Of a stretch of DNA of 64,000 bases, positions 38,286 through 57,611 are shown piece by piece. Origin of the DNA: a bacterium (lineage in GTDB: Bacteria > Actinomycetota > Acidimicrobiia > Spongiisociales > Spongiisociaceae); assembly GCA_028820935.1 (NCBI GenBank), contig JAPPHZ010000029.1:151437-215436 (forward strand). The letters run 5' to 3'. The position numbers and the translations under genes were made by a program. Position 1 is the first letter of the stretch. The number at the start of each line of letters is the position of its first letter. The notes under the pieces were generated by a model, which saw only the letters and a program-made list of their open reading frames with translations, was not told where the DNA came from and searched no databases.

Positions 38286-39182
38286 ATGAAGTACGGGATA
38301 GGCGCCGTCAACTCACTTCTCATCGACGATCCCACCGCCATGCGTGATGTCGCCCAGGCAGCCGAAGGTCTCGGCTACGACTTCCTTACGCTGATCGATC
38401 ACGTCCTGCTCGCTTACCCGGCCGCGGACGGGACGCCCCGGGCGCACTATCCGGCCCGGACCCCCTACCACGACATCCTGGTTGCTCTCGGGTATCTAGG
38501 GGGTGTCACGACCCGGATCGCGCTGCGTTCCGCAGTGGTGATCATGCCTCAGCGGGGTCCCGCGGTCGTCGCCAAGCAGGCGGCCGCTGCGGACAGCCTC
38601 TCCGGAGGGCGTCTCGAGCTGGGGCTCGGGATCGGATGGCACCTGGAGGAATACGACGCCCTGGAGGTTCCCTTCACGGAGCGGGGCCGGCGGATGGACG
38701 AGGGAATCGAGTTGATGAAGCTGCTCTGGACCCGGGACCGGGTCGACTTCGACGGGCGCTTCTACCGGGTTGACGGCATGGGAATGGAGCCGAAGCCGGT
38801 GACCCGGCCTCACCCGCCGTTGTGGTTCGGCGGCACGACCCCACCGGTTTTCCGGCGGGTCGTGGATCACGGTGTGGGCTGGTTGTCGAGGCCTGTCCAG
38901 ACGGTGGAGGAGATCGGCGCCTGCTGGAAGGAGATCCGGCGTCTCGCCGGCGAGGCGGGTCGGGACGCGGACGCGCTCCGCCTCCACGTCTCGGTGGGCC
39001 TGGGTCCGGAGGAGACCACCGATCAGATAGTCGGCAACGTGCGCAGGATGATCTCGGTGGGAGCGACGGATGTCTCGTTCTTCACCAGCTACATGCCCGG
39101 CATCGAGTCCGCCGGTGACCACATCGCTCAGCTTGAGCGGGCCATGTCCGACGTTGTGCCGGCGGTGGACGCCGGCCCGTAG
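38286..39182 (+). CDS. LLM-class flavin/F420-dependent oxidoreductase.
   Basis: MKYGIGAV start with a GGAGGAG RBS upstream. LGYDFLTLIDHV and LLM barrel motifs. The 3' end converges on and overlaps hyuB by 55 nt. Confidence 0.75.
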   Translation: MKYGIGAVNSLLIDDPTAMRDVAQAAEGLGYDFLTLIDHVLLAYPAADGTPRAHYPARTPYHDILVALGYLGGVTTRIALRSAVVIMPQRGPAVVAKQAAAADSLSGGRLELGLGIGWHLEEYDALEVPFTERGRRMDEGIELMKLLWTRDRVDFDGRFYRVDGMGMEPKPVTRPHPPLWFGGTTPPVFRRVVDHGVGWLSRPVQTVEEIGACWKEIRRLAGEAGRDADALRLHVSVGLGPEETTDQIVGNVRRMISVGATDVSFFTSYMPGIESAGDHIAQLERAMSDVVPAVDAGP

Positions 39183-40777
39183 CCGCCTCCTCCACTGGTC
39201 TCCACCCTGATGATCGACCCGGGTTCCAGAGAGGAGGAGGTCTTCGAGGCTGTCGATACGACCTGCCCATCGGGCCCGAGGATCGTCACCCTGGTGGGGC
39301 GGGCGTCATCGCCCCCTCCCACCCCCTCCGGCCGGTGCTCCTCGATGGCCTGCTCGCAGTAGAGGGTGGCGATCTGGGGGACGTCGAGGATCTGGTACTC
39401 GCGACAGATCCCCAGGCCGCCGGGCAGCAGGCCCTCTCCGGACGAGTCCTCGACGAGTTCGCTCTTGAGTATGCGGACCGAGTACTCGGTCTCGGCCACC
39501 TCGACCGGTAGCAGCGCCACGTTGGACATGTAGGTGTCCACCCCGTCGATTCCCCTTCCGTGGTCATGCGCGCCGGTCCCGCCGCCCACCACCTCCATGA
39601 GCACCGCGGTCTCGCCGGTCTGGGGGGATCTGCTGCCGATCTGCAAGCCGAAGAAGGTGACGCTGCTGCTGGCCACTGCCCGGGCCGGCCACAGATCCGA
39701 GGCTGTCCGGATGAGGGTGTCGGCGACCACCTGGCAGGTGTTGTGCCGCACGGAGACCGCCGCTGGGAACCGCGGATTCAGGATGGTTCCCGACGGGCAC
39801 GTGATGGTGACGGGCGCCAGCAAGCCGTCGTTGGAGGGGATGTCCAACCCCACCATGGTGCGGACCAGGTAGGCCACGCATGCCCGGGTGCTAGCCCAGG
39901 GCACGTTGAGCGCGCCGTCCACCTGGGGGGACGACCCGGTGAAATCCACGTGCAGCGCCCGGCCGGTCTTGGCGAGCCGCACGCGGATCGGTACGGGGGC
40001 GCTGCCGAGTCCGTCATCGTCGAGATGGCCGGTGCGTACGGCTTCTCCATCGTCGAGGTCAGCCAAGGCAGAGGCGGTCTGCCGGGCGGTCCGGTCGAGA
40101 ATCTCGGCGAACGCGGCGCCCACCTGGTCGGGTCCGTACCGTTCCATCGTGCGCAATAGCGCCCTCTCTCCTGTGAGACAGGAGGCGTGCTGGGCCCGCA
40201 GGTCGGCCACCAACCCGCGGGGTTCCCGCACGTTGGCGGCGATCATCCGGACCAGGTCCCGGTTCTCCTCGCCCCCTTGGTAGAGCTTGATGGGCGGGAA
40301 GATCAGACCCTCGGCGAACAATTCCCGGTGGTGGGGCGCCAGCGTGCCGGGTGTGGGGCCGCCCAGGTCGACGTGGTGGGCCGTCGATCCGGCCCACCCG
40401 ACCACCCGGCCGTCCGAGAAGACCGGCATGACCAGGTTCAGGTCCGGCGTATGCATGCATCCCATGTACGGATGGTTGAGCAGGAAGGCGTCGCCCGGCT
40501 GCACGTCGCCGGGGTCCGGATACTCGGCTCTGCAGGTCTGGACGGCTAGCGACATCGCTCCCAACTGGGCGGGAATCCGCTCGTCCTGAGCCACCGATTC
40601 GCCTCCGGGAGCGAAGATGGCGCAGCTGAAGTCCTCCATCTCCCTGATGATGGGGCTGTGGCTGGAACGCTTGAGGATCATCGCCATCTCGCGAGCGGCG
40701 TGGCGGAGCCGGCTGTGGATCAACTCGTAGGTGACCGGATCGAGGTTCTTGCTAGGAGGGTACTGAAAAATGTCCAT
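39128..40777 (-). CDS. hyuB: Hydantoinase B / oxoprolinase-family protein (HyuB).
   Basis: MDIFQYPPSKNLDPVTYELIHSRL N-terminus and the conserved HyuB core. 549 aa. Confidence 0.85.
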   Translation of the reverse strand: MDIFQYPPSKNLDPVTYELIHSRLRHAAREMAMILKRSSHSPIIREMEDFSCAIFAPGGESVAQDERIPAQLGAMSLAVQTCRAEYPDPGDVQPGDAFLLNHPYMGCMHTPDLNLVMPVFSDGRVVGWAGSTAHHVDLGGPTPGTLAPHHRELFAEGLIFPPIKLYQGGEENRDLVRMIAANVREPRGLVADLRAQHASCLTGERALLRTMERYGPDQVGAAFAEILDRTARQTASALADLDDGEAVRTGHLDDDGLGSAPVPIRVRLAKTGRALHVDFTGSSPQVDGALNVPWASTRACVAYLVRTMVGLDIPSNDGLLAPVTITCPSGTILNPRFPAAVSVRHNTCQVVADTLIRTASDLWPARAVASSSVTFFGLQIGSRSPQTGETAVLMEVVGGGTGAHDHGRGIDGVDTYMSNVALLPVEVAETEYSVRILKSELVEDSSGEGLLPGGLGICREYQILDVPQIATLYCEQAIEEHRPEGVGGGDDARPTRVTILGPDGQVVSTASKTSSSLEPGSIIRVETSGGGGYGPASTAGTTSDMARSS

Positions 40778-40855
40778 CTGGCCTGATAGTAGGTAATGAA
40801 GACCCAGTTCAGGGGATCACGCGCCAACCTATCCCCGTCTTTTTCAGCACCCTCC
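40755..40855. repeat. Intergenic element copy C2 at the hyuA-hyuB junction.
   Basis: In the minus-strand mRNA, the arms GGAGGGUGCUGAAAAAG and CAUUUUUCAGUACCCUCC pair over about 15 bp (one G-U wobble). The 3' arm encodes hyuB codons 2-8. hyuB has no evident Shine-Dalgarno sequence. Confidence 0.6.
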
Positions 40856-42885
40856 TAATCGGCCGCCTCCCGGATGATCAGGTTCTGGTATCGGTCCACG
40901 CGGGTGGACTGCCCGTCGAGCACGACGGTCGTGGCGTCCGGTTGCTCGACTACGCACGGCCCCGCCAGCCGGGCGCCGGGACCTAGATCATCGCGCCGGT
41001 AGACGGGAACTTCGGCGGGACGAGGCATCTCGCGCAGCTTCATAAGGCGTTTCGCGACCGGCGTGGGGCTGCGGAAGGACTCGCCGGTGGGCCGGTCGGC
41101 GCCGACGGCGAGGGATCCGAAGGCGGACATCCGCAGGGTCACGGCCACCACGGGCTCATCCGATGTATGGCCATAAAGCGAGCCGTGGATGTTACGGAAC
41201 TCCGCGCACACCCCTTCGGGGCTGAGCTCGGTGGACGCGACCGGGACGTTCAACTCGAAGCCCTGCCCCCGGTAGCGGCAGTCGATGGATGGCTCCACGC
41301 GGACTTGACGGTCCTCTATCCCGTCCGCCCGGAGCCGGGCACGTAGTGACTCCCCGGTCGTTTCGAACCACCGGGCGATGTCACCGATGGAGGAATTGTC
41401 GACGGTGGTCAGCACCGTGGCCGACTCGTCGATCCTGAGGTCCGTCGCCAGCAGGCCCGCCGCGGAGAAGAGGCCGGGGTGCCGTGGGATGACCGCCTCC
41501 GGCATGGACAGGTCCCTGATCAGCCGGCCGGCATGGAGCGGCCCGGCCCCGCCGAATGCCACCAGGGCGTACCGCCTGGGATCCTCACCTCGATCTATCG
41601 AAACTCTCCGGATGGCGGCCTCGAGATGGGCATTGGCGATGGCCAGCACGCCTTCGGCCGTGGCCTGCGGGTTCAGCCCCAGACCGGCGCCCACTCCGGC
41701 GATCGCATCGAGGGCCGCTCCCCGGTCCAGGGTGAGGCTGCCGCCCAGAGCGGTCAGCTCGCCGAGGGTGCCGGCCACCAGGTGCGCGTCGGTGAGGGTG
41801 GCGTTCCGACCCCCTCGCCCGTACGCGGCAGGTCCGGGATCCGCTCCGGCGCTCGCCGGACCGACCTTGAGGGCGCCCGACCGGTCGACCGCGACGATGC
41901 TCCCGCCTCCGGCTCCAGCCGAATGGATGTCGAGGGACGGGGACAGTATCGGGTGGGATTCGATGTGCCGCATCGGGGACACGGAAGCCAGCCCGTTCCG
42001 GATCAGGCAGACATCCGCCGACGTACCACCGATGTCGAGGGACAGCAGGTGCGTCCGCCCGGTGGCCGCTCCCAGGGCCACCGCTCCCGCGACGCCGGCC
42101 GCAGGTCCGGAGACCAGGAGCTTGTGAGCCTCGCCCTCCGCCCGCGCCGCCGGCACGCCTCCCCCGTTGGACTGCATAACCAGGAAAGTCCCGGGGATTC
42201 CGAGGTCCCGTATCCCATCCTCGGCTCGCTGCAGGTAGTCCCGGACCACCGGACGGAGCCCGGCGTTGACGGCCGTCGTTACGGTCCGGGGATACTCCCG
42301 GAACTCGTTTGCCACCTCGGAGGATCGGGAGACCGCCAGGCCCGGACACGCGGCCTCGAGGGCGTCGGCGAGCGTGCGCTCGTGGCTGTCGTCCAGGTAG
42401 CTGAACAGGAAGGAGATGGCGACCGCCTCCGGATCCCGTGACGCGACCTCGTTGACGGCTCTGCCGGTCTCCGATGCCGTGAGGGCCCGGACGGTTCCGG
42501 TTGCGGTGACACGTTCGTCCACCTCGATCCGATCACCGCGCGGAATGAACTCCCTCGGGCGGCTCTGGCGCAGGTCGTACGCGTCGGGACGGGAACCCGA
42601 GCGATAGGTCAATATGTCGCGGAATCCCTTGGTCGTGAGGAGGACAACCCGGGCCAGCATGTCGTTGATGACCGCGTTGGTGGCGATGGTGGTGCCGTGG
42701 AACACCAGGGACACCTCCTCGAACGCCATCCCGCGACGGCCGAGAGCCGAGAGGGCGTCGAGCAGGCCCAGTGCCGGATCGGCGGGGACGGTGGGCACCT
42801 TGGCCGTGAGCCGCTGCCCGATCCCGTCGTCTGCGACCACGTCGGTGAATGTGCCACCGATGTCGATGGCGACGGTCCATGTCAT
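40855..42885 (-). CDS. hyuA: Hydantoinase A / oxoprolinase-family protein (HyuA).
   Basis: MTWTVAIDIGGTFTDVV N-terminal motif. 676 aa, typical of HyuA. Confidence 0.85.
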   Translation of the reverse strand: MTWTVAIDIGGTFTDVVADDGIGQRLTAKVPTVPADPALGLLDALSALGRRGMAFEEVSLVFHGTTIATNAVINDMLARVVLLTTKGFRDILTYRSGSRPDAYDLRQSRPREFIPRGDRIEVDERVTATGTVRALTASETGRAVNEVASRDPEAVAISFLFSYLDDSHERTLADALEAACPGLAVSRSSEVANEFREYPRTVTTAVNAGLRPVVRDYLQRAEDGIRDLGIPGTFLVMQSNGGGVPAARAEGEAHKLLVSGPAAGVAGAVALGAATGRTHLLSLDIGGTSADVCLIRNGLASVSPMRHIESHPILSPSLDIHSAGAGGGSIVAVDRSGALKVGPASAGADPGPAAYGRGGRNATLTDAHLVAGTLGELTALGGSLTLDRGAALDAIAGVGAGLGLNPQATAEGVLAIANAHLEAAIRRVSIDRGEDPRRYALVAFGGAGPLHAGRLIRDLSMPEAVIPRHPGLFSAAGLLATDLRIDESATVLTTVDNSSIGDIARWFETTGESLRARLRADGIEDRQVRVEPSIDCRYRGQGFELNVPVASTELSPEGVCAEFRNIHGSLYGHTSDEPVVAVTLRMSAFGSLAVGADRPTGESFRSPTPVAKRLMKLREMPRPAEVPVYRRDDLGPGARLAGPCVVEQPDATTVVLDGQSTRVDRYQNLIIREAAD

Positions 42886-42895
42886 CCGCAGGAAC

Positions 42896-43564
42896 TCAGA
42901 CCGGCCAGGCCCTCTCGTTGTAGGCCATGTCCCAGAACATCTGCTCCAGGCGGCTGCTGGTGCGGAAGATGTCCTCGATCCTTGCCAGGTCCGAACTGCT
43001 CATGCCCTCGCAGAGTCGTTCGAGCTTGTCCTTGACCTCTTCGAGCGTGTCCCAGTACTCCTGCCCTCCGAAGAACTCGATCCAGGTGCGGTAGACCTGG
43101 TGATCCGGAGCATCGGCCAGCCGTTCCCTGCCGATCTCCCCGTAGCTCCAGGCGCAGGGTGTCAGCGAGGCCATGATGTCGGCGGCTCGACCCTCGTAGG
43201 CCACGGTCAGCAGGTGGCGGGTGTAGGCCAACGTCCCGGGCTCCATCACCACCTCTTCGGTCGCCCCCGGAACCATCTGGCGGACCTCGTCGAGCAGCTG
43301 GCGGTTCTTGGGTAGCTCGAAGTCGACGATGTTGCTCACGATGGCGGCGAAGTCCCGCATGGTGTCCTCATCATCGGCCTTCGCCACACCGAGGGCCATC
43401 GCCCTCGCCAGCTCCCTGAGGAAGACGATGTTCTGGCCGATGTAGAAGGCGAACTTCCGCTCCGGAAGGGTGCCGGCGGTCAGTTCATCCACGAACGGAT
43501 GGCTGTGCAGCTCGTGCCAGATGTCCCTGCAGCTGTCTCGGAGCTTTTCGCAAACGCTGCTCAT
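42896..43564 (-). CDS. tenA: TenA/THI-4/PqqC-family protein (second paralog).
   Basis: MSSVCEKLRDSCRDIWHELHSHPFVDELTAGTLPERKFAFYIGQN. Start trimmed to 43564 (ATGA overlap with the upstream stop). Confidence 0.75.
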   Translation of the reverse strand: MSSVCEKLRDSCRDIWHELHSHPFVDELTAGTLPERKFAFYIGQNIVFLRELARAMALGVAKADDEDTMRDFAAIVSNIVDFELPKNRQLLDEVRQMVPGATEEVVMEPGTLAYTRHLLTVAYEGRAADIMASLTPCAWSYGEIGRERLADAPDHQVYRTWIEFFGGQEYWDTLEEVKDKLERLCEGMSSSDLARIEDIFRTSSRLEQMFWDMAYNERAWPV

Positions 43565-45159
43565 CGACCGGCACCTCCTCCGATGCGCCGGCCGCCGCCG
43601 AAGCCTGCCGGACCGGTCGTGGTGTTGTACTCGTATCCAAGGGCCATGGGCTCCTCCGCCCACGGGCGGTAGAAGTCGAACAGGTACGGCTCGACCTCGA
43701 ACGCCAACTCGGCCCACCGGGCCCATGGCTCCTCCAGATCGAACAGCCCCCTCGCTATCGCCTCGTTGTACTCGTCCCGGATCTGCTGCTCGTTGATCGT
43801 GGTAATCACGCCGTTGTCGAGGACCACCTTCCCGGCGACCAGCACCGTCTCGATGTCCGTGCCGTCGGCCCGGTCCAGGATCACGTCGAGCACCGGGCTC
43901 ACGTAGAACCGCGCCGGTCTCTCGAACACCCGCTTGCGGTCGAGGATGAGCAGGTCGGCGTCCTTACCCACCGCCAGGCTGCCGATGCGGTCCTCGGCGC
44001 GGGCGGCCCGCGCCCCGGACGTGGCCGCGGATCGCAGGAGCGCCTCGGAGTTGAGCCGGCCGTGCTCGGGTTCCGGCCCTCGGGGCAGCCGCTGGAGATA
44101 AGCGCCCAGGCGAACCTCCTGGAGCATGTCGTCCCGCTCGGAGAAGGAGATGGCATCGGTACCGAACGCCAGCCCTCCACCTGCGTCAAGGATGTCGCGG
44201 ACGCGGCACACCCCGGTGCTCAGCCGGAGGTTCGAGCCGGGGTTGCTCGCCGCCACGGCGCCGCTGTCGGCCAGGATCTCGATGTCACGGTCGGTGGCCC
44301 ACACGAAGTGTGATAGCGACACATCCGGCCCGAGGAGGCCGATGTCATCCAGCCGTTGCATGGCCGTGACGCCGAAGCGCCGGATGTTGTACTGCATCTC
44401 CGACCGGGTCTCCAGGCAATGGGTCATGATCCCCGTGTCGTAGTCGGTGGCGATGGCCCGGCAACGGCGGTAGAGGTCGTCGGACACCGCCGGGGTCCAG
44501 TCCGGCGCCAGCAGGACGCGAAGCCTGTCGTCCCGGCGGTCCCAGGTCGCGGCTGCATCCTCATAAGCGGCTATGACGTCGTCGCTCGGCAGGGCGTAAC
44601 CCATCGGTGAGTTACGCACCTCCTCGGCCAGCCCTTCGGGCAGTCGGGCCAGGAAGTCGTCGTTGGCCTCGTGGACGTAGAGGTTCTCATCGCGCAGGGT
44701 GATCCCGAGCCCGGTACGCATTCCCAGGTCCTCGTACGCCTGCAGGGCGTTGTCCATGCCGAAGTTCTTAGGACCGGGGCGGCCGTAGAAGGCATCGACC
44801 GTGGTCGTGATTCCTCCCCGGACCGCGGTCATGAGCGTGACAAGGATCGCCTTGTACATGATTTCCTCGTCCATCGGCTTGAAGACCGGATGGACGTAGA
44901 TGTTGGCCCGCTCGAAGAGCATCTCCCAGAGCCCGGGGCCCAGCGCCGACTCGGAGTGGTAGTGGGAGGCCACGAAGCCGGGCATCACGAAGTGGTCCTG
45001 CGAGCCGAGGATGCGGTCGAACGGCCCCTTGGTCTCGAGTTCGGCCCTCGGTCCGGACTCCACGATCTTCTTGCCCTCGACGATCAATGCGCCATCGGTG
45101 ATGAACGCTTCGTCGGCCAGCGTGACCACCGGGTTGCCCACGATGAGATATCGCGACAT
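43561..45159 (-). CDS. TRZ/ATZ-type amidohydrolase (amidohydrolase-1 superfamily; chlorohydrolase / aminohydrolase-like).
   Basis: PGFVASHYHSE metal-binding HxH region. 532 aa. Confidence 0.75.
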   Translation of the reverse strand: MSRYLIVGNPVVTLADEAFITDGALIVEGKKIVESGPRAELETKGPFDRILGSQDHFVMPGFVASHYHSESALGPGLWEMLFERANIYVHPVFKPMDEEIMYKAILVTLMTAVRGGITTTVDAFYGRPGPKNFGMDNALQAYEDLGMRTGLGITLRDENLYVHEANDDFLARLPEGLAEEVRNSPMGYALPSDDVIAAYEDAAATWDRRDDRLRVLLAPDWTPAVSDDLYRRCRAIATDYDTGIMTHCLETRSEMQYNIRRFGVTAMQRLDDIGLLGPDVSLSHFVWATDRDIEILADSGAVAASNPGSNLRLSTGVCRVRDILDAGGGLAFGTDAISFSERDDMLQEVRLGAYLQRLPRGPEPEHGRLNSEALLRSAATSGARAARAEDRIGSLAVGKDADLLILDRKRVFERPARFYVSPVLDVILDRADGTDIETVLVAGKVVLDNGVITTINEQQIRDEYNEAIARGLFDLEEPWARWAELAFEVEPYLFDFYRPWAEEPMALGYEYNTTTGPAGFGGGRRIGGGAGR

Positions 45160-45283
45160 ATGTCCCGTCCTTTCGGCTCGTGCCTCCCCGGGCCTGCACC
45201 GGTGAAGCGCTGACGTCTCTCCCGGACCTGCCGATATGGTCCGTCATGGCGAGCTTACTTCGGGCTTGGGAACGGCGTCTTGA

Positions 45284-45370
45284 GGAGGGTGCCGGAAAAG
45301 ACGAGCAGGGGTTGGCCCGCGATCCCGCGACCTGGGTTTCGTTGCCGGTGTCGGGCATGGCGGACGGTGC
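45284..45370. repeat. Diverged third copy (C3) of the intergenic element (GGAGGGTGCCGGAAAAGACGAGCAGGGGTTGGCCCGCGATCCCGCGACCTGGGT...).
   Basis: About 75% identity to the left arm plus spacer of C2. The right arm is not recognisable. Confidence 0.45.
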
Positions 45371-45416
45371 TCGGGTTAGGGTATCGACGTTGCCCGGAGT
45401 CCAGAGGAGGGCGCCA

Positions 45417-49719: not shown

Positions 49720-49764
49720 CTCTCCGATCACGGGTAGCCGGTTCTCACCGGCCACCGTTTCTGG

Positions 49765-50733
49765 TCACCGTCCGCTGTTTCGGTGGTGGTGTAGTCGGTA
49801 GACGCGGCGGGTGTTCTCTCCGAGTATTTGGTCGATTTCGTGTTGGGGGATGCGGTAGCCCAGTTGTTTGGCCCATTCGGGGAGCATGCGGAATTGGTCT
49901 ACCCATTGTTTGAGGGTTAGGGAGACTTCTATGCCGGCCATGTCGGAGCCGAAGAGGATGCGGTCGGGTCCGATGCGGTCTCTCATCCATACGATTTTGC
50001 GGACTAGTTCGTCGGGGGAGATCCAGTGTTGCCATAGGCTCATGTCGAGGTGGACGTTGGTTTTGTAGATGGCGACGGAGATGGCTTCATGCGCCCAGGT
50101 TTCGTAGCGGGCGGAGTGGCCGAGGATGAAGCGTAGGTCGGGGAAGTCGGCGGCGGCTGAGTCGACGTAGATGGGGTGTCCGTATTTTGATTTGTGTCGT
50201 CCTGCGGAGTGTCCTTGGTGGAGGAGTACGGGTAGGTCTCTTTCGAGGAGGAACCGGTAGAGGGGGTAGACGACGTTTTCGTCGTCGGGGTAGAAGCCGT
50301 TGGTGGGATACAGTTTGAGGCCTATGGCGCCCCATTGGTCTACTGCGGTGGTGAGTATTTCGAGGGCGTCGGGGCGTCGGGGGTCTACTCCGCAGAAGGT
50401 GTAGAGGCGTCCGGGGTGTCTTTTGGTGGCTTCGGCGCAGAGCCGGTTCTTTTCTGCGATGGGGATGACGCCTTCTTCGCCCAGGCCGACACCGTGGTCC
50501 ATGGGCATCATCACCGACGCGTCGACCCCGGCCTCGTCCATGCGAGCAACCGCCTTATCACCGTTACCGTCGGCGGCCACACTCCAAGCCTTCGCGAAGT
50601 ACTCGGGGTCGGACTTGGGAGGGTCGTACCAGCGCACCTGCCTAGCCCAGGATTCGGCCATACCCGAGGACACGTTCATCGGGTTCCAATCGGGTTCCAT
50701 GATGTGCATATGGCAGTCCACCACCAAGGGCAT
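49765..50733 (-). CDS. Amidohydrolase-2 family hydrolase (copy B).
   Basis: MPLVVDCHMHI start with an AGAGGAG RBS upstream. The C-terminal 260 aa are identical to copy A. Confidence 0.75.
   Translation of the reverse strand: MPLVVDCHMHIMEPDWNPMNVSSGMAESWARQVRWYDPPKSDPEYFAKAWSVAADGNGDKAVARMDEAGVDASVMMPMDHGVGLGEEGVIPIAEKNRLCAEATKRHPGRLYTFCGVDPRRPDALEILTTAVDQWGAIGLKLYPTNGFYPDDENVVYPLYRFLLERDLPVLLHQGHSAGRHKSKYGHPIYVDSAAADFPDLRFILGHSARYETWAHEAISVAIYKTNVHLDMSLWQHWISPDELVRKIVWMRDRIGPDRILFGSDMAGIEVSLTLKQWVDQFRMLPEWAKQLGYRIPQHEIDQILGENTRRVYRLHHHRNSGR
49780..50562. repeat. Second copy of the identical 783-bp block.
   Basis: See 46483..47265. Confidence 0.85.
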
Positions 50734-50735
50734 GG

Positions 50736-52292
50736 TCACTCCTCTCTTGAACCGCTCCCCGTCAGGGGCGGATGCTTGGCGTTGTATACGGCCGCCGGCT
50801 CCAACGGTGTCCGGGCCCACGGGCGGTAGAAGTCGAGGACGTAGGGGTCCACCTCCCATCCCAGGCGCACCGACTCCGGGTCTGGGTCGCCTCCCATGAT
50901 GCGCGCAGCCGCTTCGGTGACGTAGTCATGCACCCGGCTGTGCGGAATGCGGGTGAACTCGCCGTCGTCGAACACGATCTCTCCGGCGACCATGACCGAG
51001 GCCACGTCGGCGGAAGAGGCTCGGTCGAGGATCACGTCCAGGGGCGGGGTGGACGCGTAGCGTTCCTCCGGCCAGAACAAGCGGTCGCGGCTCAATACGA
51101 CCAGGTCGGCTTCCTTGCCGACGCCGAGCGAGCCGAGTTCGGACTCGAAGCGGATCGCCCGGGCGCCGTTCTCCGCCGCGGCTCGCAGGACGGCTTCCGA
51201 ATCGAGGCGCCCGACCTCGAGCAATCCCGGCGTTCTCTGCAGGTAGGCGGCGAGGCGGAGCTCCTGCAAGAAGTCGCCGGAGTCGGAGAAGGAGATGTTG
51301 TCGGTGCCGAAGCACACCCGCCCGCCGCGGTCCATGATGTCCCTCACCCGCGCTATCCCGGTGCTGAGCCGGAGGTTGGAGCCGGGATTGTTGACGGCCA
51401 CCGCTCCCGTATCGGCGAGTATCGAGATGTCCTCGTCGGTCGCCCAGACGAAATGGGAACACGACACGTCGGGCCCCAGCACCCCGAGATCCGCCAGGCG
51501 GCGCATGGCGGTCTTGCCGTCGCTCTCCAGCGCGTACATCATCTCGGAGCGGGTCTCGAGCACGTGCGTCATGATCCCCGTTCCGAACTCATCGGCGAGG
51601 CGGCGGTTCCGGACGTAGAGCTCGTCCGAGCACGCCGGCGTCCAGTCCGGGGCGAGCAGTATCCGGATGCGGCCGTCCCGGTGATCCCACCGCGAGACCA
51701 GGTCCCGGTAGGTGGCGAACACCTCTCCGGTCGGCCACGCATAACCCATCGCCGATGCGCGCACGCGGGCAGCCAGATCCTCCGGGAGCATGGCGAGGAA
51801 CGACTCGTCGTCGGCGTGGACCAGGGTGTTCCGGTCCCTCGTCACCACACCGAGGGCCACCCGAACTCCGAGGTCCCGGTAGGCGGCCAGTATGGCGTCG
51901 TACCCGAAGTTGGGCAGACCGGACCGGCCGTAGTTGAGGTCGACGAACCCGGTCTGGCCTCCCCGCACGTCGTTCATGACGTTGGCCAGCACCGCGTGGT
52001 AGAGGTCCTCCTCGGTGACAGGGGTCCACATGCCATGCAAGTGGACGTTGGCCCGCTCGAAGATGTACTGGGCCATGCCCCTGCTCAGGGCCGAGCCCGA
52101 GTGATAATGACCGTTGATGAAGCCCGGAAGGACGGCATGGCGGGGCGATCCGACCCGCCGGTCGAAGGGACCGAGGCCCTCCAGATCGCGCCTCTTCCCG
52201 ATCCCTACGACGGTCCGATCCTCGACGACGAGCGCGCCGTCCCGGACATAACCCGGGGAAGCATCACCGAGGACGACGAGGGGATCTCCCAT
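50736..52292 (-). CDS. TRZ/ATZ-type amidohydrolase (paralog of 43561..45159).
   Basis: LPGFINGHYHSGS. Start trimmed to MGDPLVVLG (52292) by alignment to the paralog N-terminus. Confidence 0.7.
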   Translation of the reverse strand: MGDPLVVLGDASPGYVRDGALVVEDRTVVGIGKRRDLEGLGPFDRRVGSPRHAVLPGFINGHYHSGSALSRGMAQYIFERANVHLHGMWTPVTEEDLYHAVLANVMNDVRGGQTGFVDLNYGRSGLPNFGYDAILAAYRDLGVRVALGVVTRDRNTLVHADDESFLAMLPEDLAARVRASAMGYAWPTGEVFATYRDLVSRWDHRDGRIRILLAPDWTPACSDELYVRNRRLADEFGTGIMTHVLETRSEMMYALESDGKTAMRRLADLGVLGPDVSCSHFVWATDEDISILADTGAVAVNNPGSNLRLSTGIARVRDIMDRGGRVCFGTDNISFSDSGDFLQELRLAAYLQRTPGLLEVGRLDSEAVLRAAAENGARAIRFESELGSLGVGKEADLVVLSRDRLFWPEERYASTPPLDVILDRASSADVASVMVAGEIVFDDGEFTRIPHSRVHDYVTEAAARIMGGDPDPESVRLGWEVDPYVLDFYRPWARTPLEPAAVYNAKHPPLTGSGSREE

Positions 52293-52364
52293 CACCAGCG
52301 TCCGGCTCACCGTGGTCCTCCCACCCTGGTCCTCCTTGGGTGACCTGACCATAATGCCACCAGA

Positions 52365-53513
52365 GTGAGGTTGCTGGAACACGAGTCCAAGGCCCGCCTG
52401 GCCAGGGCCGGGGTGAGGGTTCCACGGGGCGCCGTCGCCACCACCCCGGAACAGGCCGGGTCTGCCGCGCCGGCTCTGGGCCGCGAGGTCTTCGTCAAGG
52501 CGTTGGTCCCGGCGAACCGGCGGTCGAAGAACAACGGCGTGATCGGCCCCATCGGGCCGGACGGCGTGGCGCGAGCGGCGCATGAGCTGCTCGCCTCCCG
52601 GATCCTGGGCCATCGGTGCCGGTCGGTATACGTGGAGGAGGCTGTCGCCGTGGCCGGAGAGCTCTATGCCGCCTTCTCGTGGAGTCCTCGCGGCCCCAGG
52701 GCCACCGCATCCGCCGCAGGAGGTGTGGACATCGAGAACTCGGGCGGTGCGATGGTCCATCTTGACCTGGAGGGGTTGGCGGACCTACCCCGAGGCGGGG
52801 CGGAGCGTCTCTGGGGGCGGGCGCTGGGCGACTCCCGGGTCCCGACTGCGCTGGTCGACCTGACCGTGTCCGCAGCCGGCGTCTTCTTCGACGACGCGCT
52901 GCTGGTGGAGCTGAACCCGCTGGCCAGGTCGGCCGACGGGTCGTTCACCGCAGTCGGCGCGCTGATCGAAATGGACGGCAGCGCCCTCTTCAGGCATCCG
53001 GAACTCCGATGGCGTCCCGACGGACTCAGCGAGCGGGAGGCCGTCGTGGCAGAGGCCGACCGCCGGCTTCCGGGCGCCTCGGTACGTTACGTGGAGCTCG
53101 ACGGTGATACGGGGCTGCTGGTGGGCGGCGGCGGCGCCGGGCTGTACCAGCACGATCTGCTGGTCCGAGCGGGGGTGCGACCGGCCAACCACAGCGACCT
53201 GGGCGCCGGGGTATCGGCCGAGAAGCTGGACGTGCTGATCGGGGCCGTGCTCGGCCACCCGAACCTCTCGCGCCTGCTGGTCAGCTTCAACATCCTCCAG
53301 CTGGCCCCGTGCGACCTCATCATGGAGAGACTCCTGGCGGGCCTGGACAGGATGCGAGGCCGGGACGGCCCGATCCCGGTGGTGGTCCGGCTCGAGGGCC
53401 TCAACGCCGAGCGGGCCCGGAGGCTGGCGGCAGGACGCGCCGGTTTGCGGTACCTTCCCTCCGGAGCGAGCCTGGGAGAGGCCGTGGACACCCTGGTCAG
53501 GATCAGCCGGTGA
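52365..53513 (+). CDS. Succinyl-CoA synthetase beta-subunit-like ADP-forming CoA ligase (ATP-grasp plus ligase-CoA domain).
   Basis: LLEHESKARLARAG, LVELNPLARSADGSFTAVGALIEMDGSALFRHPEL and VVVRLEGLNAERARRLA align with SucC. Confidence 0.75.
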   Translation: MRLLEHESKARLARAGVRVPRGAVATTPEQAGSAAPALGREVFVKALVPANRRSKNNGVIGPIGPDGVARAAHELLASRILGHRCRSVYVEEAVAVAGELYAAFSWSPRGPRATASAAGGVDIENSGGAMVHLDLEGLADLPRGGAERLWGRALGDSRVPTALVDLTVSAAGVFFDDALLVELNPLARSADGSFTAVGALIEMDGSALFRHPELRWRPDGLSEREAVVAEADRRLPGASVRYVELDGDTGLLVGGGGAGLYQHDLLVRAGVRPANHSDLGAGVSAEKLDVLIGAVLGHPNLSRLLVSFNILQLAPCDLIMERLLAGLDRMRGRDGPIPVVVRLEGLNAERARRLAAGRAGLRYLPSGASLGEAVDTLVRISR

Positions 53514-53728
53514 TCGTCCGAGCCGACATGGCGTCGATCGTCTGGCGGATAACCGTCGGCGAAGGCGAACGGGTGCGAGCCGGGCAGGAGCTCCTCATCC
53601 TCGAGTCGATGAAGATGGAGATGCCCGTCCTCGCTCCGGTGGCCGGGATGGTGGCCGATATCCCGGTGGCTGAGGGCGACGTCATCGAGGCCGGTGACGA
53701 GCTGGTGCGGATCGAACGCAGCCGGTGA
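53510..53728 (+). CDS. Small biotinyl-domain carrier protein (BCCP / 1.3S-like, about 72 aa).
   Basis: ITVGEGERVRAGQELLILESMKMEMPVLAPVAGMVADIPVAEGDVIEAGDELVRIE: a biotin-attachment MKM hammerhead. GTGA overlaps at both ends. Confidence 0.7.
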   Translation: MIVRADMASIVWRITVGEGERVRAGQELLILESMKMEMPVLAPVAGMVADIPVAEGDVIEAGDELVRIERSR

Positions 53729-54621
53729 GCATCCTGGTCGACGAGCGGACCCGGATCCTGGTCCAGGGCATAACCGGCTCCGTAGGCCGGGTGGATACCC
53801 GGCTATGCCTCGACTACGGATCCCGGATCGTGGCCGGCGTCACGCCCGGACGGGGTGGGGAATCGGTCTCGGGGGTTCCGGTCTTCGATACGGTGGCCGA
53901 AGCAGTCGAGCGGACCGGGGCCACCGCGGCGGTTCAGTACGTGCCGGCCCGCCATGCGGCCGACGCGGTGGTGGAGGCGGCCGCATCCGGCCTGTCGCCG
54001 ATCGTGGCCATTGCGGAGAACCTGCCCCGGCATGATGCCTGGCGGGCCGCCGTGGCCGCCAGGGGCGCCGGTTCGGTCCTGATCGGGTTCAATACCAACG
54101 GCATCATCTCACCGGGAAGGACGAAGCTGGGGGGTATCGGCGGGCCGAGGCCCGACGACCTGTTCCGCGCCGGAACCGTGGGTGTCTGCTCCCGGTCGGG
54201 GGGAATGTCCGCCGAGATCGCCCGCTCGCTGGCCAGGGCCGGCAGCGGCGTCTCGACCTGCGTCTCGATGGGAGGGGAGTCGATCACCGGAAGAACCATG
54301 GCCGAGTACGCCCGCTGGTTCGAGGCGGACGAAGCCACCCGCAGCATCGTGGTCTTCGGAGAGCCGGGATCGGAGCATGAGGCACTGCTGGCCGCGGCCA
54401 TGGAGCGCGGCGAGGTCACCAAACCGGTCGTGGCGATGATCGTGGGCCAGTTCCAGGATGCCTACCCGGCCGGATCCTCGTTCGGCCATCTATCGGCGAT
54501 GGTGCGGCTCGAGACCGACCGTGCGGTGGTGAAGCGTGACATGCTGGCCGCTGCCGGAGCGCTTATAGCGGAGCGCGTCGAGGACATCCCCGACCTGATT
54601 ACCGTCATGGATGCGGGATGA
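53725..54621 (+). CDS. Succinyl-CoA synthetase alpha-subunit-like CoA-binding protein.
   Basis: MSILVDERTRILVQGITGSVG...GVTPGRGG...PVFDTVAEAV...VCSRSGGMS...FGH aligns along the full length with SucD. Confidence 0.75.
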   Translation: MSILVDERTRILVQGITGSVGRVDTRLCLDYGSRIVAGVTPGRGGESVSGVPVFDTVAEAVERTGATAAVQYVPARHAADAVVEAAASGLSPIVAIAENLPRHDAWRAAVAARGAGSVLIGFNTNGIISPGRTKLGGIGGPRPDDLFRAGTVGVCSRSGGMSAEIARSLARAGSGVSTCVSMGGESITGRTMAEYARWFEADEATRSIVVFGEPGSEHEALLAAAMERGEVTKPVVAMIVGQFQDAYPAGSSFGHLSAMVRLETDRAVVKRDMLAAAGALIAERVEDIPDLITVMDAG

Positions 54622-56174
54622 TCTGGGACCCAGAACTCGAGGAGATGGAGCGCCGGAAGGCGTTCGCGCTCTCGATGGGCGGGGACGAGGCCGTGGCGCG
54701 CCAGCACGACGCCGGCCGGCTCACCGCCAGGGACAGGATCGCTCTCCTGCTCGACGAGGGCACCTGGCAGGAGATCGGGACCTACACCGGTGCGGCCACC
54801 TATGACGCGGAGGGCCGGCTCGTCAGCGTGAAGCCGGCCAACACCATCATCGGAACAGGCCGGGTCCGCGGCCGTCGGGTGGCCGTCGAAGCCGACGATT
54901 ACACGATCAGGGGAGGCTCGACGGAAGCGCAGATCTCGGAGAAGTGGGAGTTCATCAACCGGTACGCGCTGGAGATGCGGATGCCGATGATCCGTCTCGT
55001 GGAGAACGTCGGGGGAAGTGTCCGCCTGCTCGAGAAGATGGGGCGGACCAAGATCCCCGGATACCGCATGTGGCCCCTCGCCGGGATGCTCGGCTACGTG
55101 CCCGTAGTGGCCTTGGTGCTGGGTCCGTCAGCGGGTCTCGGTCCTATGAAGGCCGCCAGCAGCCACTTCTCGGTGATGGTCCGCGGTACCAGCCAGGTGT
55201 TCGCCGCCGGCCCTCCGGTGGCGCGGGTCGCCCTGGGCAGGGACATCGACAAGGAGGAGCTGGGAGGCGCCCACATCCACACCGAGCAGAGCGGAGTGAT
55301 CGACAACGCGGCCGACTCGGAGGAGGAGGCGATCTGCCTGGCGCGCCGGTTCCTGTCCTACCTTCCGCAGAGCGTGTTCGAGATGCCTCTCCACCGCCCG
55401 TCCGACGATGCGCCCGACCGCGCCGAGGAGGAGTTGGCTTCGATCATCCCGCGTAACCAGCGCCGGGTCTACGACTCGCGGAGGCTCCTGGCGCTGGTCT
55501 TCGACCGTGGCACGCTCTTCGAGATCGCGCCGGCCTACGGTCCCTCATCTATCACGATGCTGGCCCGCCTCAACGGTTACCCGGTTGGGGTGATCGCCAA
55601 CGATCCCTACCGGTTCGGGGGCGGTCTGACCCGCGCCGCCGCCGAGAAGGTCGAGACGTTCGTGGATCTGTGCGACACCTTCCACGTTCCGATCGTGAAC
55701 TTCGTGGACCAGCCCGGCACCGTGATCGGGCTGGAAGCCGAGCGCGAAGGAGCTGTGCGGGGGACCATCCGCCTCATCTCCGCCATCGAGCAGTCGAGGG
55801 TTCCGTGGTGCGGCATGATCGTGCGGCGGCTCTTCGGTCTGGCGGGCACCAGCTACGGCCGGCTGCAGGGGCTGAACCTTCACTATGCCTGGCCGTCTGC
55901 CCGGTGGGGTTCGATCCCGATCCAGGGAGGGGTGAGAGCCGCCTTCCGCCGGGAACTCGACGCCCTGCCCCCCGACGAGGCGGCGGAAAGGCTGGCACGG
56001 CTGGAGGAGCAATACGACGGGCTGTCGTCACCCTTCCGGACGGCGGAGGCCTTCGGGGTTCCGGAGATCATCGATCCCCGCCGGACCAGACCCGTCCTGT
56101 GCCAGTGGATCGAGGACGCCTATGCCGTGCTCCCCGAGCAACTGGGGCCGACAGCCCGTACCATGCGCAGGTAG
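54618..56174 (+). CDS. Acyl-CoA carboxylase carboxyltransferase subunit (PccB/AccD-like; methylmalonyl-CoA decarboxylase alpha-like).
   Basis: Carboxyl-transferase-domain architecture. 518 aa. ATGA overlap with the upstream gene. Confidence 0.75.
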   Translation: MIWDPELEEMERRKAFALSMGGDEAVARQHDAGRLTARDRIALLLDEGTWQEIGTYTGAATYDAEGRLVSVKPANTIIGTGRVRGRRVAVEADDYTIRGGSTEAQISEKWEFINRYALEMRMPMIRLVENVGGSVRLLEKMGRTKIPGYRMWPLAGMLGYVPVVALVLGPSAGLGPMKAASSHFSVMVRGTSQVFAAGPPVARVALGRDIDKEELGGAHIHTEQSGVIDNAADSEEEAICLARRFLSYLPQSVFEMPLHRPSDDAPDRAEEELASIIPRNQRRVYDSRRLLALVFDRGTLFEIAPAYGPSSITMLARLNGYPVGVIANDPYRFGGGLTRAAAEKVETFVDLCDTFHVPIVNFVDQPGTVIGLEAEREGAVRGTIRLISAIEQSRVPWCGMIVRRLFGLAGTSYGRLQGLNLHYAWPSARWGSIPIQGGVRAAFRRELDALPPDEAAERLARLEEQYDGLSSPFRTAEAFGVPEIIDPRRTRPVLCQWIEDAYAVLPEQLGPTARTMRR

Positions 56175-56261
56175 CCGGAACGAGGAGATGCTCCGGCGCC
56201 GACCGCGCCATCCACCGATTACCCGAGACCTGGAAGCGCCCACTGCGAAAGCGAGGAGAAA

Positions 56262-57611
56262 GTGTCTGATCGGATCATCATCGAGAACGCTGCCATCGTG
56301 ACGATGAACGAAGAGGACGATGTGATCTTCGACGGGTCGATGGTCATCGAGGGCAACCGGATCGTCGCCGTCGGGGGCTCGGAGGCGGTGTCCGGATACG
56401 ACCGCGCCGGTGCGAAGGTCATCGACGCCGGCGGGAAGGCGGCCCTACCGGGGTTCGTCGACCTCCACTACCACACCGCCATAGGTAAGGGATACTGCGA
56501 CCATCTGGATCTGTGGGAGATCCTGCAGGCGTTCTGGTATCCGATGATCCGGGCCCTCAATCCCGAAGAGGCCTACTGGGCGGCCATGGCCAGCTACAGC
56601 GAGTCGTTGAAGGCCGGCGTCACCACCGCCAACGACATGTTCCGCCAACTCCCGGCCCTGGCGCGGGCGGCGGTCGACAGCGGGATCCGGGTGGTTCTCT
56701 CCAACGACATAGCCGACCCGGAGCACGATCTCGACCTGATCGAGGACAACGAGTCGGCCTACCACGAGTGCCACGGGATGGGCGACGGGCGGGTGGAGGT
56801 CTACGTGGGTATCGAGTGGCTACCCCTCGCCTCCGAGCAACTGCTGGTGGACTGCCGGGCGCTGGCCGACCAGTTGGGGACCGGTATCCACATCCACCTG
56901 AACGAGTCCCTCGGCGAGGTCGAGATATCTAAGCAGGCCTTCGGCGGGCGTCGGCCCACCGAGGTGGCTTACGACACCGGGATCCTGGGACCTGATTGCG
57001 TGGCCGCCCACTGCGTGCATCTGTCGGACCGGGAGATCGGGCTCATGAGCGAGACAGGAACCCACATCTCCCACAATCCCACCTCCAACGCCAAGCTCGG
57101 CAACGGTATCGCCCGGCTGCCCGAGATTCTGGAGGCGGGGATCAATGTCGGTCTGGGCCATGACTCGGCGGAAGGAACCAACAGCTGCGACCTGTTCCAG
57201 GTGATGAAGTGGGCGTCGCTGGTGCATCGGGCCGAGCGCAAGGACGCCACGATCCTTCAGGCGCCAACCATCCTGCGAATGGCGACCAGGAACGGCGCGC
57301 GTGCCCTAGGCCACGAGACGGGCGAGTTGAGCGTCGGGAAGGTGGCGGACGTGATCCTGGTCAACCTCCAGAACCACCATTTCACTCCTTTCGTGCCGGG
57401 TAACAAGATCCATCTCATGTCACATCTGGTCTACAGCGCGGAGAGCGCCGCGGTCGACACCACCATCGTGGACGGCACGATCGTGATGGAAGGGCGCGAG
57501 TTCGTGGCCTTCGACGAGGAGGAAGTGCTGGCGAAGGCGACCGAGAGCTTCTTCACCTGCACCGACCGGATGGAGGTCCCCGAGGAATACGCCGGGCTTC
57601 TCGACCGCTAG
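56262..57611 (+). CDS. TRZ/ATZ-type amidohydrolase (third paralog).
   Basis: PGFVDLHYHTA HxH motif. GTG start with a GAGGAG RBS upstream. Confidence 0.75.
   Translation: MSDRIIIENAAIVTMNEEDDVIFDGSMVIEGNRIVAVGGSEAVSGYDRAGAKVIDAGGKAALPGFVDLHYHTAIGKGYCDHLDLWEILQAFWYPMIRALNPEEAYWAAMASYSESLKAGVTTANDMFRQLPALARAAVDSGIRVVLSNDIADPEHDLDLIEDNESAYHECHGMGDGRVEVYVGIEWLPLASEQLLVDCRALADQLGTGIHIHLNESLGEVEISKQAFGGRRPTEVAYDTGILGPDCVAAHCVHLSDREIGLMSETGTHISHNPTSNAKLGNGIARLPEILEAGINVGLGHDSAEGTNSCDLFQVMKWASLVHRAERKDATILQAPTILRMATRNGARALGHETGELSVGKVADVILVNLQNHHFTPFVPGNKIHLMSHLVYSAESAAVDTTIVDGTIVMEGREFVAFDEEEVLAKATESFFTCTDRMEVPEEYAGLLDR

Follow-up and report, generated by a model that had tools for sequence, protein, structure and literature searches.

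The stretch of DNA described here (the window, 64,000 nucleotides of contig JAPPHZ010000029.1) carries at positions 39128-57611 a dense group of amidohydrolase genes. Together with the genes at 57.7-64 kb and at 0.3-6 kb, this group is best read as the version found in sponge Acidimicrobiia of a conserved actinobacterial catabolic system. The conserved core is a triad of a variant TenA protein (with Asn44 and often Phe163), an amidohydrolase of the COG0402 type (Amidohydro_1 or AH1; AH1_A/B and AH1_C) and an ACMSD-related protein of the Amidohydro_2 type (AH2; AH2_a or AH2_b/c). The triad is surrounded by genes for alcohol and aldehyde dehydrogenases (ADH, ALDH) or a GMC oxidase, luciferase-like (LLM) oxidoreductases using F420 or flavin mononucleotide (FMN), a GntR/FCD regulator and an M20 deacylase, and by a module of NicX-like, B12 mutase, coenzyme A (CoA) transferase and epimerase genes. 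With about even confidence the system is assigned to the catabolism of thiamin-derived or similar 5-substituted aminopyrimidines, with a substrate and an order of steps that we infer. A preliminary description of the window had proposed the breakdown of an N-heterocycle of the s-triazine/melamine, pyrimidine or creatinine/hydantoin type; comparative genomics bears out a conserved N-heterocycle catabolic system, and among the three options the pyrimidine is the one favoured by the evidence. By exact protein matches the window is located on contig JAPPLL010000062.1 of the metagenome-assembled genome GCA_028819445.1 and on two ENA metagenome scaffolds. The nearest relatives of the window genes (91-97 % amino acid identity) come from metagenome-assembled genomes (MAGs) labelled Acidimicrobiia or 'Candidatus Spongiisociaceae', a family within the Acidimicrobiia, and the names given to these MAGs suggest that the source lived in a sponge.

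The members of the triad stay together far beyond the source genome. A scan of one genome per GTDB species with an alignment of the AH1_A/B family gave 77 loci, some genomes contributing more than one. Nearly all of them belong to Actinomycetota, namely sponge Acidimicrobiia, soil Streptosporangiaceae, Thermoleophilia, Solirubrobacterales and Parafrankia sp. EUN1f, and a single locus (L020) represents a second phylum, the Dormibacterota. Neighbours were counted within 10 kb of the AH1_A/B gene in the 56 loci of at least 12 kb. An Amidohydro_2 gene is present in 50 of these loci and a TenA-like gene in 48, which in 20 cases lies no more than 70 nt from AH1. AH1_C follows with 37 loci, Zn-dependent ADH with 33, GntR with 29, LLM3 with 26, the CoA-transferase with 23, the mutase with 21, ALDH with 20, M20 with 19 and the two-subunit hydantoinase HyuAB with 10. 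The clustering of AH1, AH2 and TenA genes is not due to chance.

Gene orders were read in the Pfam-annotated loci L081, L017 and L052. The common order in soil genomes is M20, NicX-like, B12-binding subunit, mutase, CoA-transferase III, (M20), LLM, glyoxalase/epimerase-like, GntR/FCD, TenA-like, Zn-ADH, ALDH, AH1_C, AH1_A/B and AH2_a; the gene order of 57684-64000 recurs beside TenA and AH1 genes in soil Actinomycetota. Because the window contains this mutase-module set known from the soil clusters, the functional unit exceeds 39128-57611 and reaches at least the window end at 64000. The CoA-ester/B12-mutase half, as well as a copy of the triad linked to a transporter at the left end, had been overlooked in the preliminary description. 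An operon of Herbiconiux sp. P15 (GCA_041927395.1) encodes an FMN monooxygenase of the NtaA/DmoA type, TenA(Asn44), an AH2_a orthologue (65 % identity), a GMC oxidoreductase, an AH1_C orthologue (58 %), an NMT1-family binding protein, TenA(Asp44), a permease, an ATPase and an LLM protein.

Two TenA proteins (PF03070) are encoded in the window. Against the thiaminase II model TIGR04306 (cut-off 130 bits) TenA1 reaches 162.5 bits and TenA2 72.6 bits. As described earlier, TenA1 lies directly downstream of a TRZ/ATZ-like gene: the stop of AH1_A and the start of TenA1 overlap as ATGA, an arrangement of translational coupling. Residues were assigned in Bacillus subtilis numbering by alignment to the TenA structures of Helicobacter pylori and B. 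subtilis. TenA1 possesses Asn44, Phe47, Tyr112, Cys135, Phe163, Glu205 and Phe208; TenA2 also has an Asn at the position of Asp44 and retains Cys135, Glu205, Tyr112, Tyr163 and Phe208. The catalytic residues Cys135, Glu205 and Tyr112 are retained in both proteins and in nearly all cluster-associated homologues. Asn44 occurs in 60 of 69 TenA-like open reading frames (ORFs) of the genome-scan loci and, usually together with Phe163, in 72 of the 74 best database homologues of TenA1, whereas the matches from Bacillus and related Firmicutes that bear the name thiaminase II have Asp44/Tyr163. Hydrogen bonds link the corresponding Asp to the amino groups of bound HMP-P, the phosphate of HMP (4-amino-5-hydroxymethyl-2-methylpyrimidine), and the D44A exchange strongly impairs TenA of B. 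subtilis (PMC5623701). In view of these counts and of the published role of Asp44, the Asn44 proteins form a coherent, cluster-associated subclass with a predicted change of recognition at the C4 side of the ring. Such a pocket would agree with a 4-oxo substrate that the neighbouring deaminase produces, and the exchange agrees with the earlier proposal that TenA was recruited for a different substrate. Their present label in the sources, 'thiaminase II', is likely an over-annotation, since the residue shown to be important for activity is missing.

The link between this TenA type and the amidohydrolases was also seen in the reverse direction. A reciprocal scan of metagenomes with TenA patterns that excluded position 44 returned 17 Asn44 and 62 Asp44 loci; among loci of at least 5 kb, tallied by hand, AH1 or AH2 neighbours occur at five of eight Asn44 TenA genes versus one of 37 Asp44 genes (Fisher p = 2.6e-4). 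The context is not that of thiamin biosynthesis or salvage. In the whole window there are no Rfam matches at gathering score and therefore no thiamin pyrophosphate (TPP) riboswitch, and the Pfam families of ThiD and ThiE are missing from the annotated neighbourhoods; in both respects the preliminary description, which had placed the TenA paralogues outside thiamin biosynthesis and had seen no TPP element, proved right. One TenA-like protein stands apart: in locus L085 the gene at 6659-7333, beside an NMT1 ATP-binding cassette (ABC) importer, encodes Asn44 together with a Gly in place of the catalytic Cys, and its product may be non-catalytic or act differently.

The three AH1 proteins belong to two COG0402 orthogroups. 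AH1_A and AH1_B are 54 % identical, and AH1_C shares 25-27 % with both. The deaminase metal site of COG0402 (HxH, H, H, D) and the HxxE motif are complete in all of them: in AH1_A/B H66, H68, H247, E250, H284 and D335 are invariant among 17 aligned sequences, and AH1_C shows LHYH at residues 68-71 and HLNE at 212-215. AH1_C is 58-70 % identical across Actinomycetota; 1807 proteins were found with it at E <= 1e-30, the closest orthologues (65-70 % identical) coming largely from soil metagenomes. No AH1 protein attains an NCBIfam equivalog cut-off among the chlorohydrolases, TRZ/ATZ hydrolases, guanine, 8-oxoguanine, methylthioadenosine/S-adenosylhomocysteine (MTA/SAH) and 5'-deoxyadenosine deaminases and HutF. 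The best scores against the N-ethylammeline chlorohydrolase and chlorohydrolase models are 186-341 bits (cut-offs 609-617), and against guanine deaminase (TIGR02967, cut-off 375) AH1_A, AH1_B and AH1_C reach 111, 95 and 147 bits. Solved structures are matched with 148-160 bits for MTA/SAH deaminase, 102-156 for AtzA, 70-77 for TrzN and 45-94 for guanine deaminases, and scores inside the own families amount to 600-1100 bits. These scores set the TRZ/ATZ-like proteins apart from housekeeping guanine and cytosine deaminases, and their genes are clustered, not scattered, in related genomes, so that the refuting outcome named in the preliminary description did not occur.

The third member of the triad is represented by AH2_a and the pair AH2_b/AH2_c, distant members of the ACMSD clade. 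PF04909 matches all Amidohydro_2 proteins. Orthologues of AH2_a are 64-73 % identical across Actinomycetota, and H6, H8, H192, H227 and D284 are invariant. AH2_b-type genes pair with AH1_A/B and TenA in other genomes. Profile matches among PDB structures are ACMSD, the gamma-resorcylate, 2,3-dihydroxybenzoate, salicylate and 5-carboxyvanillate decarboxylases and the hydratase LigJ, the nearest solved structure being that of an uncharacterised protein. The characterised relatives are nearly all non-oxidative decarboxylases of aromatic acids, acting ortho to a hydroxyl or amino group. AH2_b and AH2_c are 93 % identical as proteins and 95 % identical in DNA over 949 bp. Since this identity is confined to the coding region and both copies exist in sister species, the pair looks like the product of gene conversion between paralogues, not of a fresh duplication.

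Importers encoded in the relatives' clusters are of types associated with thiamin and pyrimidines. The best match of the Herbiconiux binding protein is the uncharacterised ABC binding protein 4nmy, followed by ThiY (3ix1, E = 1e-32), which binds N-formyl-4-amino-5-aminomethyl-2-methylpyrimidine, and more weakly by the HMP-P synthase THI5. Homologues of NMT1 binding proteins lie within 12 genome loci, beside an Asp44 TenA and AH1_C, and in further metagenome loci. Locus L085 consists of GntR, two AH2-AH1-TenA triads, an NMT1 ABC importer and ADH and holds no other genes. L104 and L125 carry, one after the other, HAD phosphatase, TenA(Asp44), ATPase, permease, NMT1, M20, NicX-like, B12-binding and mutase, whereas in L149 a permease of the NCS1 family (cytosine/purine/uracil/thiamine/allantoin) replaces the ABC system before TenA, M20, NicX-like, B12, mutase, CoA-transferase and LLM. 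Two unrelated importer types, the NMT1 ABC system and NCS1, both of them pyrimidine- or thiamin-associated, are thus swapped before the same enzymes. In two sister sponge genomes (L010 and L043) AH2_b and AH2_a are separated by an extra block without counterpart in the window, with genes for a binding protein of the NMT1 type, an ABC ATPase, a protein resembling AH1_C (48 % identical) and a further Asn44 TenA.

From these parts the following route can be proposed. A thiamin-derived or similar 5-(substituted-methyl)aminopyrimidine, such as formylamino-HMP, amino-HMP or HMP, would be imported and deacylated by the M20 enzyme. TenA would hydrolyse the substituent at the C5 methylene, and the COG0402 deaminase (AH1) would take off the C4 amino group, yielding a 4-oxo ring suited to an Asn44 TenA. 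The 5-hydroxymethyl group would be turned into a carboxylate by ADH/ALDH or the GMC oxidase, and the 5-carboxylate would be removed by the ACMSD-like AH2. The opening of the lactam ring would then fall to ATP-dependent HyuAB and the amidase in members of the sponge lineage and to LLM and NicX-like enzymes in the other genomes. The acid fragments could finally enter central metabolism as CoA esters via the epimerase and the B12 mutase, with ammonia and carbon as the yield. The lack of ThiD/ThiE in the annotated neighbourhoods and the presence of GntR/FCD regulators point to catabolism rather than salvage. HMP 5-carboxylate is a known microbial breakdown product of thiamin whose fate is described as unknown, and in the same 2024 paper oxidised pyrimidine products are called microbial and urinary 'orphans' (PMC11223231).

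Several observations weigh against this route. The weakest link is the mutase module: a decarboxylated C3 ring fragment has no obvious need for a methylmalonyl-type mutase, so that either some route keeps the C5 branch or the module acts on another product. Furthermore, the exchange of Asp for Asn is no proof that deamination comes first, because Asn pairs with a 4-amino or a 4-oxo pyrimidine alike. The window itself contains neither a ThiY-like or NCS1 importer nor an Asp44 TenA, and its importer carries a family-5 binding protein of the peptide/opine type. Three enzyme assignments also failed. Isoorotate decarboxylase is absent from the PDB single-sequence matches of the AH2 proteins and from their profile matches at E <= 0.01, the NicX-like protein scores only 28.6 bits as a true 2,5-dihydroxypyridine dioxygenase and differs in one aligned metal ligand, and the M20 protein has only generic ArgE/DapE matches below cut-off and is not recognised as a formylaminopyrimidine deformylase. 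Finally, at least four AH1, three TenA and several AH2 genes lie on one contig; since thiamin fragments are trace compounds, so many copies suggest a more abundant or more varied set of substrates.

A serious, if less likely, alternative is that the same system acts on another 5-substituted pyrimidine, e.g. 5-hydroxymethyl- or 5-methyl-cytosine or -uracil, hypermodified phage bases (5-CH2-X) or pyrimidine antimetabolites such as bacimethrin. Here deamination would be accompanied by hydrolysis and oxidation of the side chain and by ring opening, and methylmalonyl-CoA would be the form in which a 5-methyl skeleton leaves. A pocket with Asn44/Phe163 may be suited to 4-oxo (uracil-like) rings, a mutase with Arg207, an epimerase-like protein and a CoA-transferase fit a product of the methylmalonate type, such as thymine-like rings would give, the two COG0402 enzymes of a cluster could strip two different substituents, and several paralogous triads on one contig suggest several related substrates; the case is strongest for the sponge genomes, which have these triads and no ThiY-type importer. 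However, the importers and binding proteins of the relatives are of thiamin-pyrimidine types (ThiY 3ix1, E = 1e-32), a canonical Asp44 TenA and an M20 deacylase lie in the same operons, and thymine hydroxylase or nucleoside-processing genes were unseen in the annotated neighbourhoods. The very same relatives' genes (ThiY-like importers, canonical TenA and M20, as in the known salvage operon) and the score of TenA1 above the thiaminase II cut-off would also suit a salvage in which TenA and accessory hydrolases repair damaged pyrimidines to HMP for thiamin synthesis. This is nevertheless quite unlikely: ThiD/ThiE and a TPP riboswitch are missing in the scopes given above, GntR/FCD regulators are typical of catabolic operons, and TenA2 falls below the thiaminase II cut-off and has lost Asp44. 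Moreover, the deaminases, decarboxylase-like enzymes, dehydrogenases, ATP-dependent lactamase-type enzymes and the mutase would destroy HMP.

It is likewise improbable that there is no single pathway at all and that a paralogue-rich region of a symbiont has accumulated unrelated hydrolases for miscellaneous organic nitrogen compounds. Other operons of the window do contain genes for a phosphotriesterase (PTE), an N,N-dimethylformamidase (DMFA2)-like and an FmdA/AmdA-like protein, two M20, a creatininase-family, three enolase-superfamily and three LLM proteins, and duplications appear recent (ADH 86 %, AH2_b/c 93 % identical). On the other hand, core gene pairs and orders are kept across classes and in the Dormibacterota locus, the tight coupling (4-nt overlaps, TenA within 70 nt of AH1 in 20 loci) is maintained, and the TenA type is statistically strongly linked to AH1/AH2. 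Degradation of s-triazine/melamine by Atz/Trz-like deamination and an AtzE/F-like amidase, or of creatinine/N-methylhydantoin by creatininase and then an ATP-dependent N-methylhydantoinase, is very improbable. It is matched at the superfamily level only, by 'chlorohydrolase'-like Amidohydro_1 proteins, the amidase signature, hydantoinase A/B and the creatininase family. Both readings are unsupported because NCBIfam cut-offs are missed and pathway genes are missing. The scores for N-ethylammeline chlorohydrolase (186-341 vs 609) lie far below the cut-off, and the AtzA and TrzN structures are matched with 70-156 bits. The amidase, earlier placed in the AtzE/AtzF family, reaches 196 of 461 bits for AtzE and 114 of 487 for allophanate hydrolase. 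Neither a gene of the cyanuric acid hydrolase family nor a biuret hydrolase was found among the window genes. The creatininase-family gene (25693-26484, minus strand) scores 105 against 235 bits for creatininase and 131 against 172 for MftE, lies 13 kb outside 39128-57611 in a separate operon and is absent from the conserved cluster elsewhere. The constant partners are TenA and pyrimidine-type importers.

Genes were called from ORFs picked by third-position GC and typed with Pfam and NCBIfam, and gene starts were adjusted via homology and ribosome-binding sites. The coordinates of the genes of the system are given in the table.

Genes of the putative pyrimidine catabolic system in the window
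Gene or protein	Position	Strand	Remarks
ABC ATPase	272-1297	-	Pfam
ABC permeases	1314-2219, 2230-3246	-	Pfam
Family-5 solute-binding protein	3351-5210	-	Pfam
TenA2	5340-6002	-	PF03070; first gene of the left-end importer operon
Zn-alcohol dehydrogenases, tandem	35370-36473, 37098-38201	-	Pfam; 86 % identical, spacer about 620 bp
LLM2	38262-39182	+	F420-dependent luciferase-like oxidoreductase; convergent with HyuB; position conserved
HyuB	39128-40777	-	ATP-dependent hydantoinase/oxoprolinase-type subunit (Pfam)
HyuA	40855-42885	-	ATP-dependent hydantoinase/oxoprolinase-type subunit; HyuAB downstream of TenA1 on the same strand
TenA1	42896-43564	-	Variant thiaminase-II-like, PF03070
AH1_A	43561-45159	-	COG0402-type Amidohydro_1, 532 amino acids
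AH2_a	45417-46418	+	ACMSD-related Amidohydro_2
AH2_b	46468-47451	-	Amidohydro_2; operon with SDR
Short-chain dehydrogenase/reductase (SDR)	47439-48215	-	Operon with AH2_b
Amidase-signature enzyme	48277-49719	+	Pfam
AH2_c	49765-50733	-	Amidohydro_2; 2-nt gap to AH1_B
AH1_B	50736-52310	-	Amidohydro_1
SucC-like	52365-53513	+	Operon with SucD-like, carboxyltransferase and AH1_C
SucD-like	53725-54621	+	Partner in SucCD-like ligase
Carboxyltransferase	54618-56174	+	Same operon as AH1_C
AH1_C	56262-57611	+	Amidohydro_1, second COG0402 orthogroup
Epimerase-like glyoxalase	57684-58115	-	90.5 bits against a cut-off of 115
LLM3	58115-59098	-	Nearest to F420-dependent Mer-type enzymes
M20 deacylase	59103-60191	-	Module gene
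CoA-transferase III	60188-61396	-	Module gene
Acyl-CoA mutase, large subunit	61393-62985	-	Module gene
B12-binding subunit	62982-63386	-	Module gene
NicX-like	63383 to beyond 64000	-	C-terminal part; runs off the window end

The interval 39128-57611 comprises 14 genes. The preliminary description had listed three TRZ/ATZ hydrolases, five Amidohydro_2 paralogues, two TenA, hydantoinase A/B, an amidase and a creatininase there. HyuA/B, three Amidohydro_1 and the amidase are indeed present, together with three Amidohydro_2 and one TenA. Five Amidohydro_2, two TenA and the creatininase are reached only window-wide, the additional Amidohydro_2 genes being located at 23516-24379 (minus strand) and 29503-30417 (plus strand), and the SDR, the SucC-like and SucD-like proteins and the carboxyltransferase had been omitted. 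An ORF at 28677-29462 (261 amino acids), whose GC3 is strongly of the coding type and which public assemblies list as a gene, was dropped as a second TenA since it has no Pfam or NCBIfam match; the true second one is TenA2. The word 'island' is a descriptive label only, because G+C is even along the full length of the window (63-70 %) and no mobile-element genes were noticed in it. A horizontally acquired island was rejected in view of the even GC and of the synteny kept among sister genomes, and as to plasmid-borne copies in cultured strains, a search with AH2_a gave no match among 72,556 plasmids.

The creatininase-family gene is part of a separate putative catabolic cluster at 20490-26484 with an IclR regulator, two enolase-superfamily (MR/MLE) genes, one of the Amidohydro_2 genes and an M20 deacylase.

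In the sponge lineage an AH1_A/B gene precedes HyuAB, and the same succession is found independently in L052 and L064. The nearest NCBIfam models of its subunits are caprolactamase alpha and beta (413 and 237 bits, cut-off 1000). LLM2 passes TIGR03619 (241.7 bits, cut-off 166.9). The ADH pair adjoins HyuB/LLM2 in every relative of the sponge lineage that reaches that far, with one to three copies in the sister genomes. The ALDH of the relatives' clusters is closer to aryl/amino-aldehyde dehydrogenases (535 bits) than to methylmalonate-semialdehyde dehydrogenase (283 bits). Only in the sponge lineage is the set enlarged by the amidase, the SDR, the SucCD-like proteins and the carboxyltransferase. 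A run of minus-strand genes at 30436-35319, encoding a type I phosphodiesterase-like protein (672 amino acids), a protein similar to the beta subunit of N,N-dimethylformamidase (528 amino acids) and a phosphotriesterase-family protein, adjoins the ADH genes in some sister genomes as well. The gene at 8316-10685 encodes a lone molybdopterin-binding large subunit of the xanthine dehydrogenase/aldehyde oxidase family, with glyceraldehyde dehydrogenase and a carbon monoxide dehydrogenase (CODH)-like protein as nearest models and no adjacent genes for FAD or Fe-S subunits. In sister genomes its counterpart comes immediately downstream of the ADH genes, next to the HyuAB operon, and this different placement indicates a rearrangement of about 27 kb in the window.

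Several junctions of the module at 57684-64000 are 4-nt overlaps. The mutase passes the domain model TIGR00641 and reaches 565 of 876 bits for NF006944. It matches the 2-hydroxyisobutyryl-CoA mutase HcmA with 511 bits and the methylmalonyl-CoA mutases of man or Propionibacterium with 396-432 bits. The carboxylate-binding Arg207 is kept in all cluster homologues; the position of Tyr89 is occupied by Phe in this mutase and in roughly half of the homologues associated with the cluster, and by Tyr in the others.

At the left end the importer operon continues on the source contig past the window edge with a second ATPase, an Amidohydro_2, a third TenA, a fourth Amidohydro_1 (517 amino acids), a protein of the metallo-beta-lactamase fold and a SnoaL-like protein. 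In this layout the importer is physically fused to an AH2-TenA-AH1 triad, and the arrangement is repeated in nine sister loci. The family-5 binding protein has, after a signal-like segment, a long N-terminal repeat rich in Thr, Ala and Pro (TTAAPATTAAPTTTAAP...), which suggests a tethered lipoprotein linker.

A conserved, widespread cluster in which pyrimidine importers and TenA are joined with deaminases, decarboxylase-like enzymes and a B12 mutase would make the fate of the thiamin pyrimidine accessible to experiments, the more so as Herbiconiux sp. P15 and Parafrankia sp. EUN1f are cultured carriers. The presence of several copies on a single contig suggests that, for sponge symbionts, pyrimidines derived from vitamins or related to these serve as a meaningful source of nitrogen and carbon within the holobiont. 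The component families are all known. Their combination, the Asn44 subclass of TenA and the link to a B12 mutase are undescribed in the literature searched, which yielded no paper on genes for the breakdown of vitamin B1 (thiamin) or HMP, on TenA with amidohydrolases or on oxythiamin with TenA. Only tentatively is it put forward that the cluster represents the first genetic basis for thiamin-pyrimidine catabolism. This would include an Asn44/Phe163 TenA for 4-oxo-pyrimidines supplied by a dedicated aminopyrimidine deaminase and an HcmA-like B12 mutase (Phe/Tyr89) acting on a branched, possibly hydroxylated, malonyl-type CoA ester from the ring atoms C4-C5(-C7)-C6.

One of the closest known systems is the salvage of the thiamin pyrimidine in Bacillus; as reportedly described by Jenkins et al. 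in 2007, it consists of the importer ThiXYZ, the deformylase YlmB and the thiaminase II TenA. The pair of TenA and M20 is reminiscent of the salvage pair of TenA and YlmB. Common to both are the TenA fold with the set Cys135/Glu205/Tyr112 and, in the clusters of the relatives, a ThiY-like binding protein, a canonical TenA and an adjacent M20 deacylase. However, ThiD, ThiE and a TPP riboswitch are missing here, the cluster-specific TenA has Asn44, and COG0402 deaminases, ACMSD-like proteins, dehydrogenases, LLM proteins, HyuAB and the B12 mutase module are added, so that destruction of the ring rather than its reuse is indicated. The Atz/Trz pathway likewise employs metal amidohydrolases of the same superfamily, which strip exocyclic substituents off an N-heterocycle, as well as an amidase-signature enzyme, but the AH1 proteins are separate orthogroups (AtzA 102-156 and TrzN 70-77 vs 600-1100 bits in their own families), cyanuric acid, biuret and allophanate hydrolases are missing, and the constant partners are TenA and Amidohydro_2.

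In thymidine salvage, thymine is oxidised to 5-hydroxymethyl-, 5-formyl- and 5-carboxy-uracil and then converted to uracil by isoorotate decarboxylase. By analogy, a stepwise oxidation of the C5 one-carbon group and a subsequent decarboxylation by an enzyme of the Amidohydro_2 family are proposed here, although AH2_a and AH2_b/c have no specific similarity to isoorotate decarboxylase, and the oxidation would use ADH/ALDH or a GMC oxidase instead of a 2-oxoglutarate dioxygenase. HyuA and HyuB share the two-subunit architecture of N-methylhydantoinase, 5-oxoprolinase and caprolactamase. They differ from these ATP-dependent lactam and hydantoin hydrolases in their scores (413 and 237 vs 1000) and genomic partners, and the putative substrate would be a pyrimidin-4-one lactam. 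With the methylmalonyl-CoA pathway the module has in common a mutase split into a large and a B12-binding subunit, Arg207, an epimerase-like glyoxalase and a family III CoA-transferase. In contrast to that pathway, the mutase is closer to HcmA and has Phe at the position of Tyr89, and the module is located together with NicX-like, M20 and LLM genes in the vicinity of TenA and importers.

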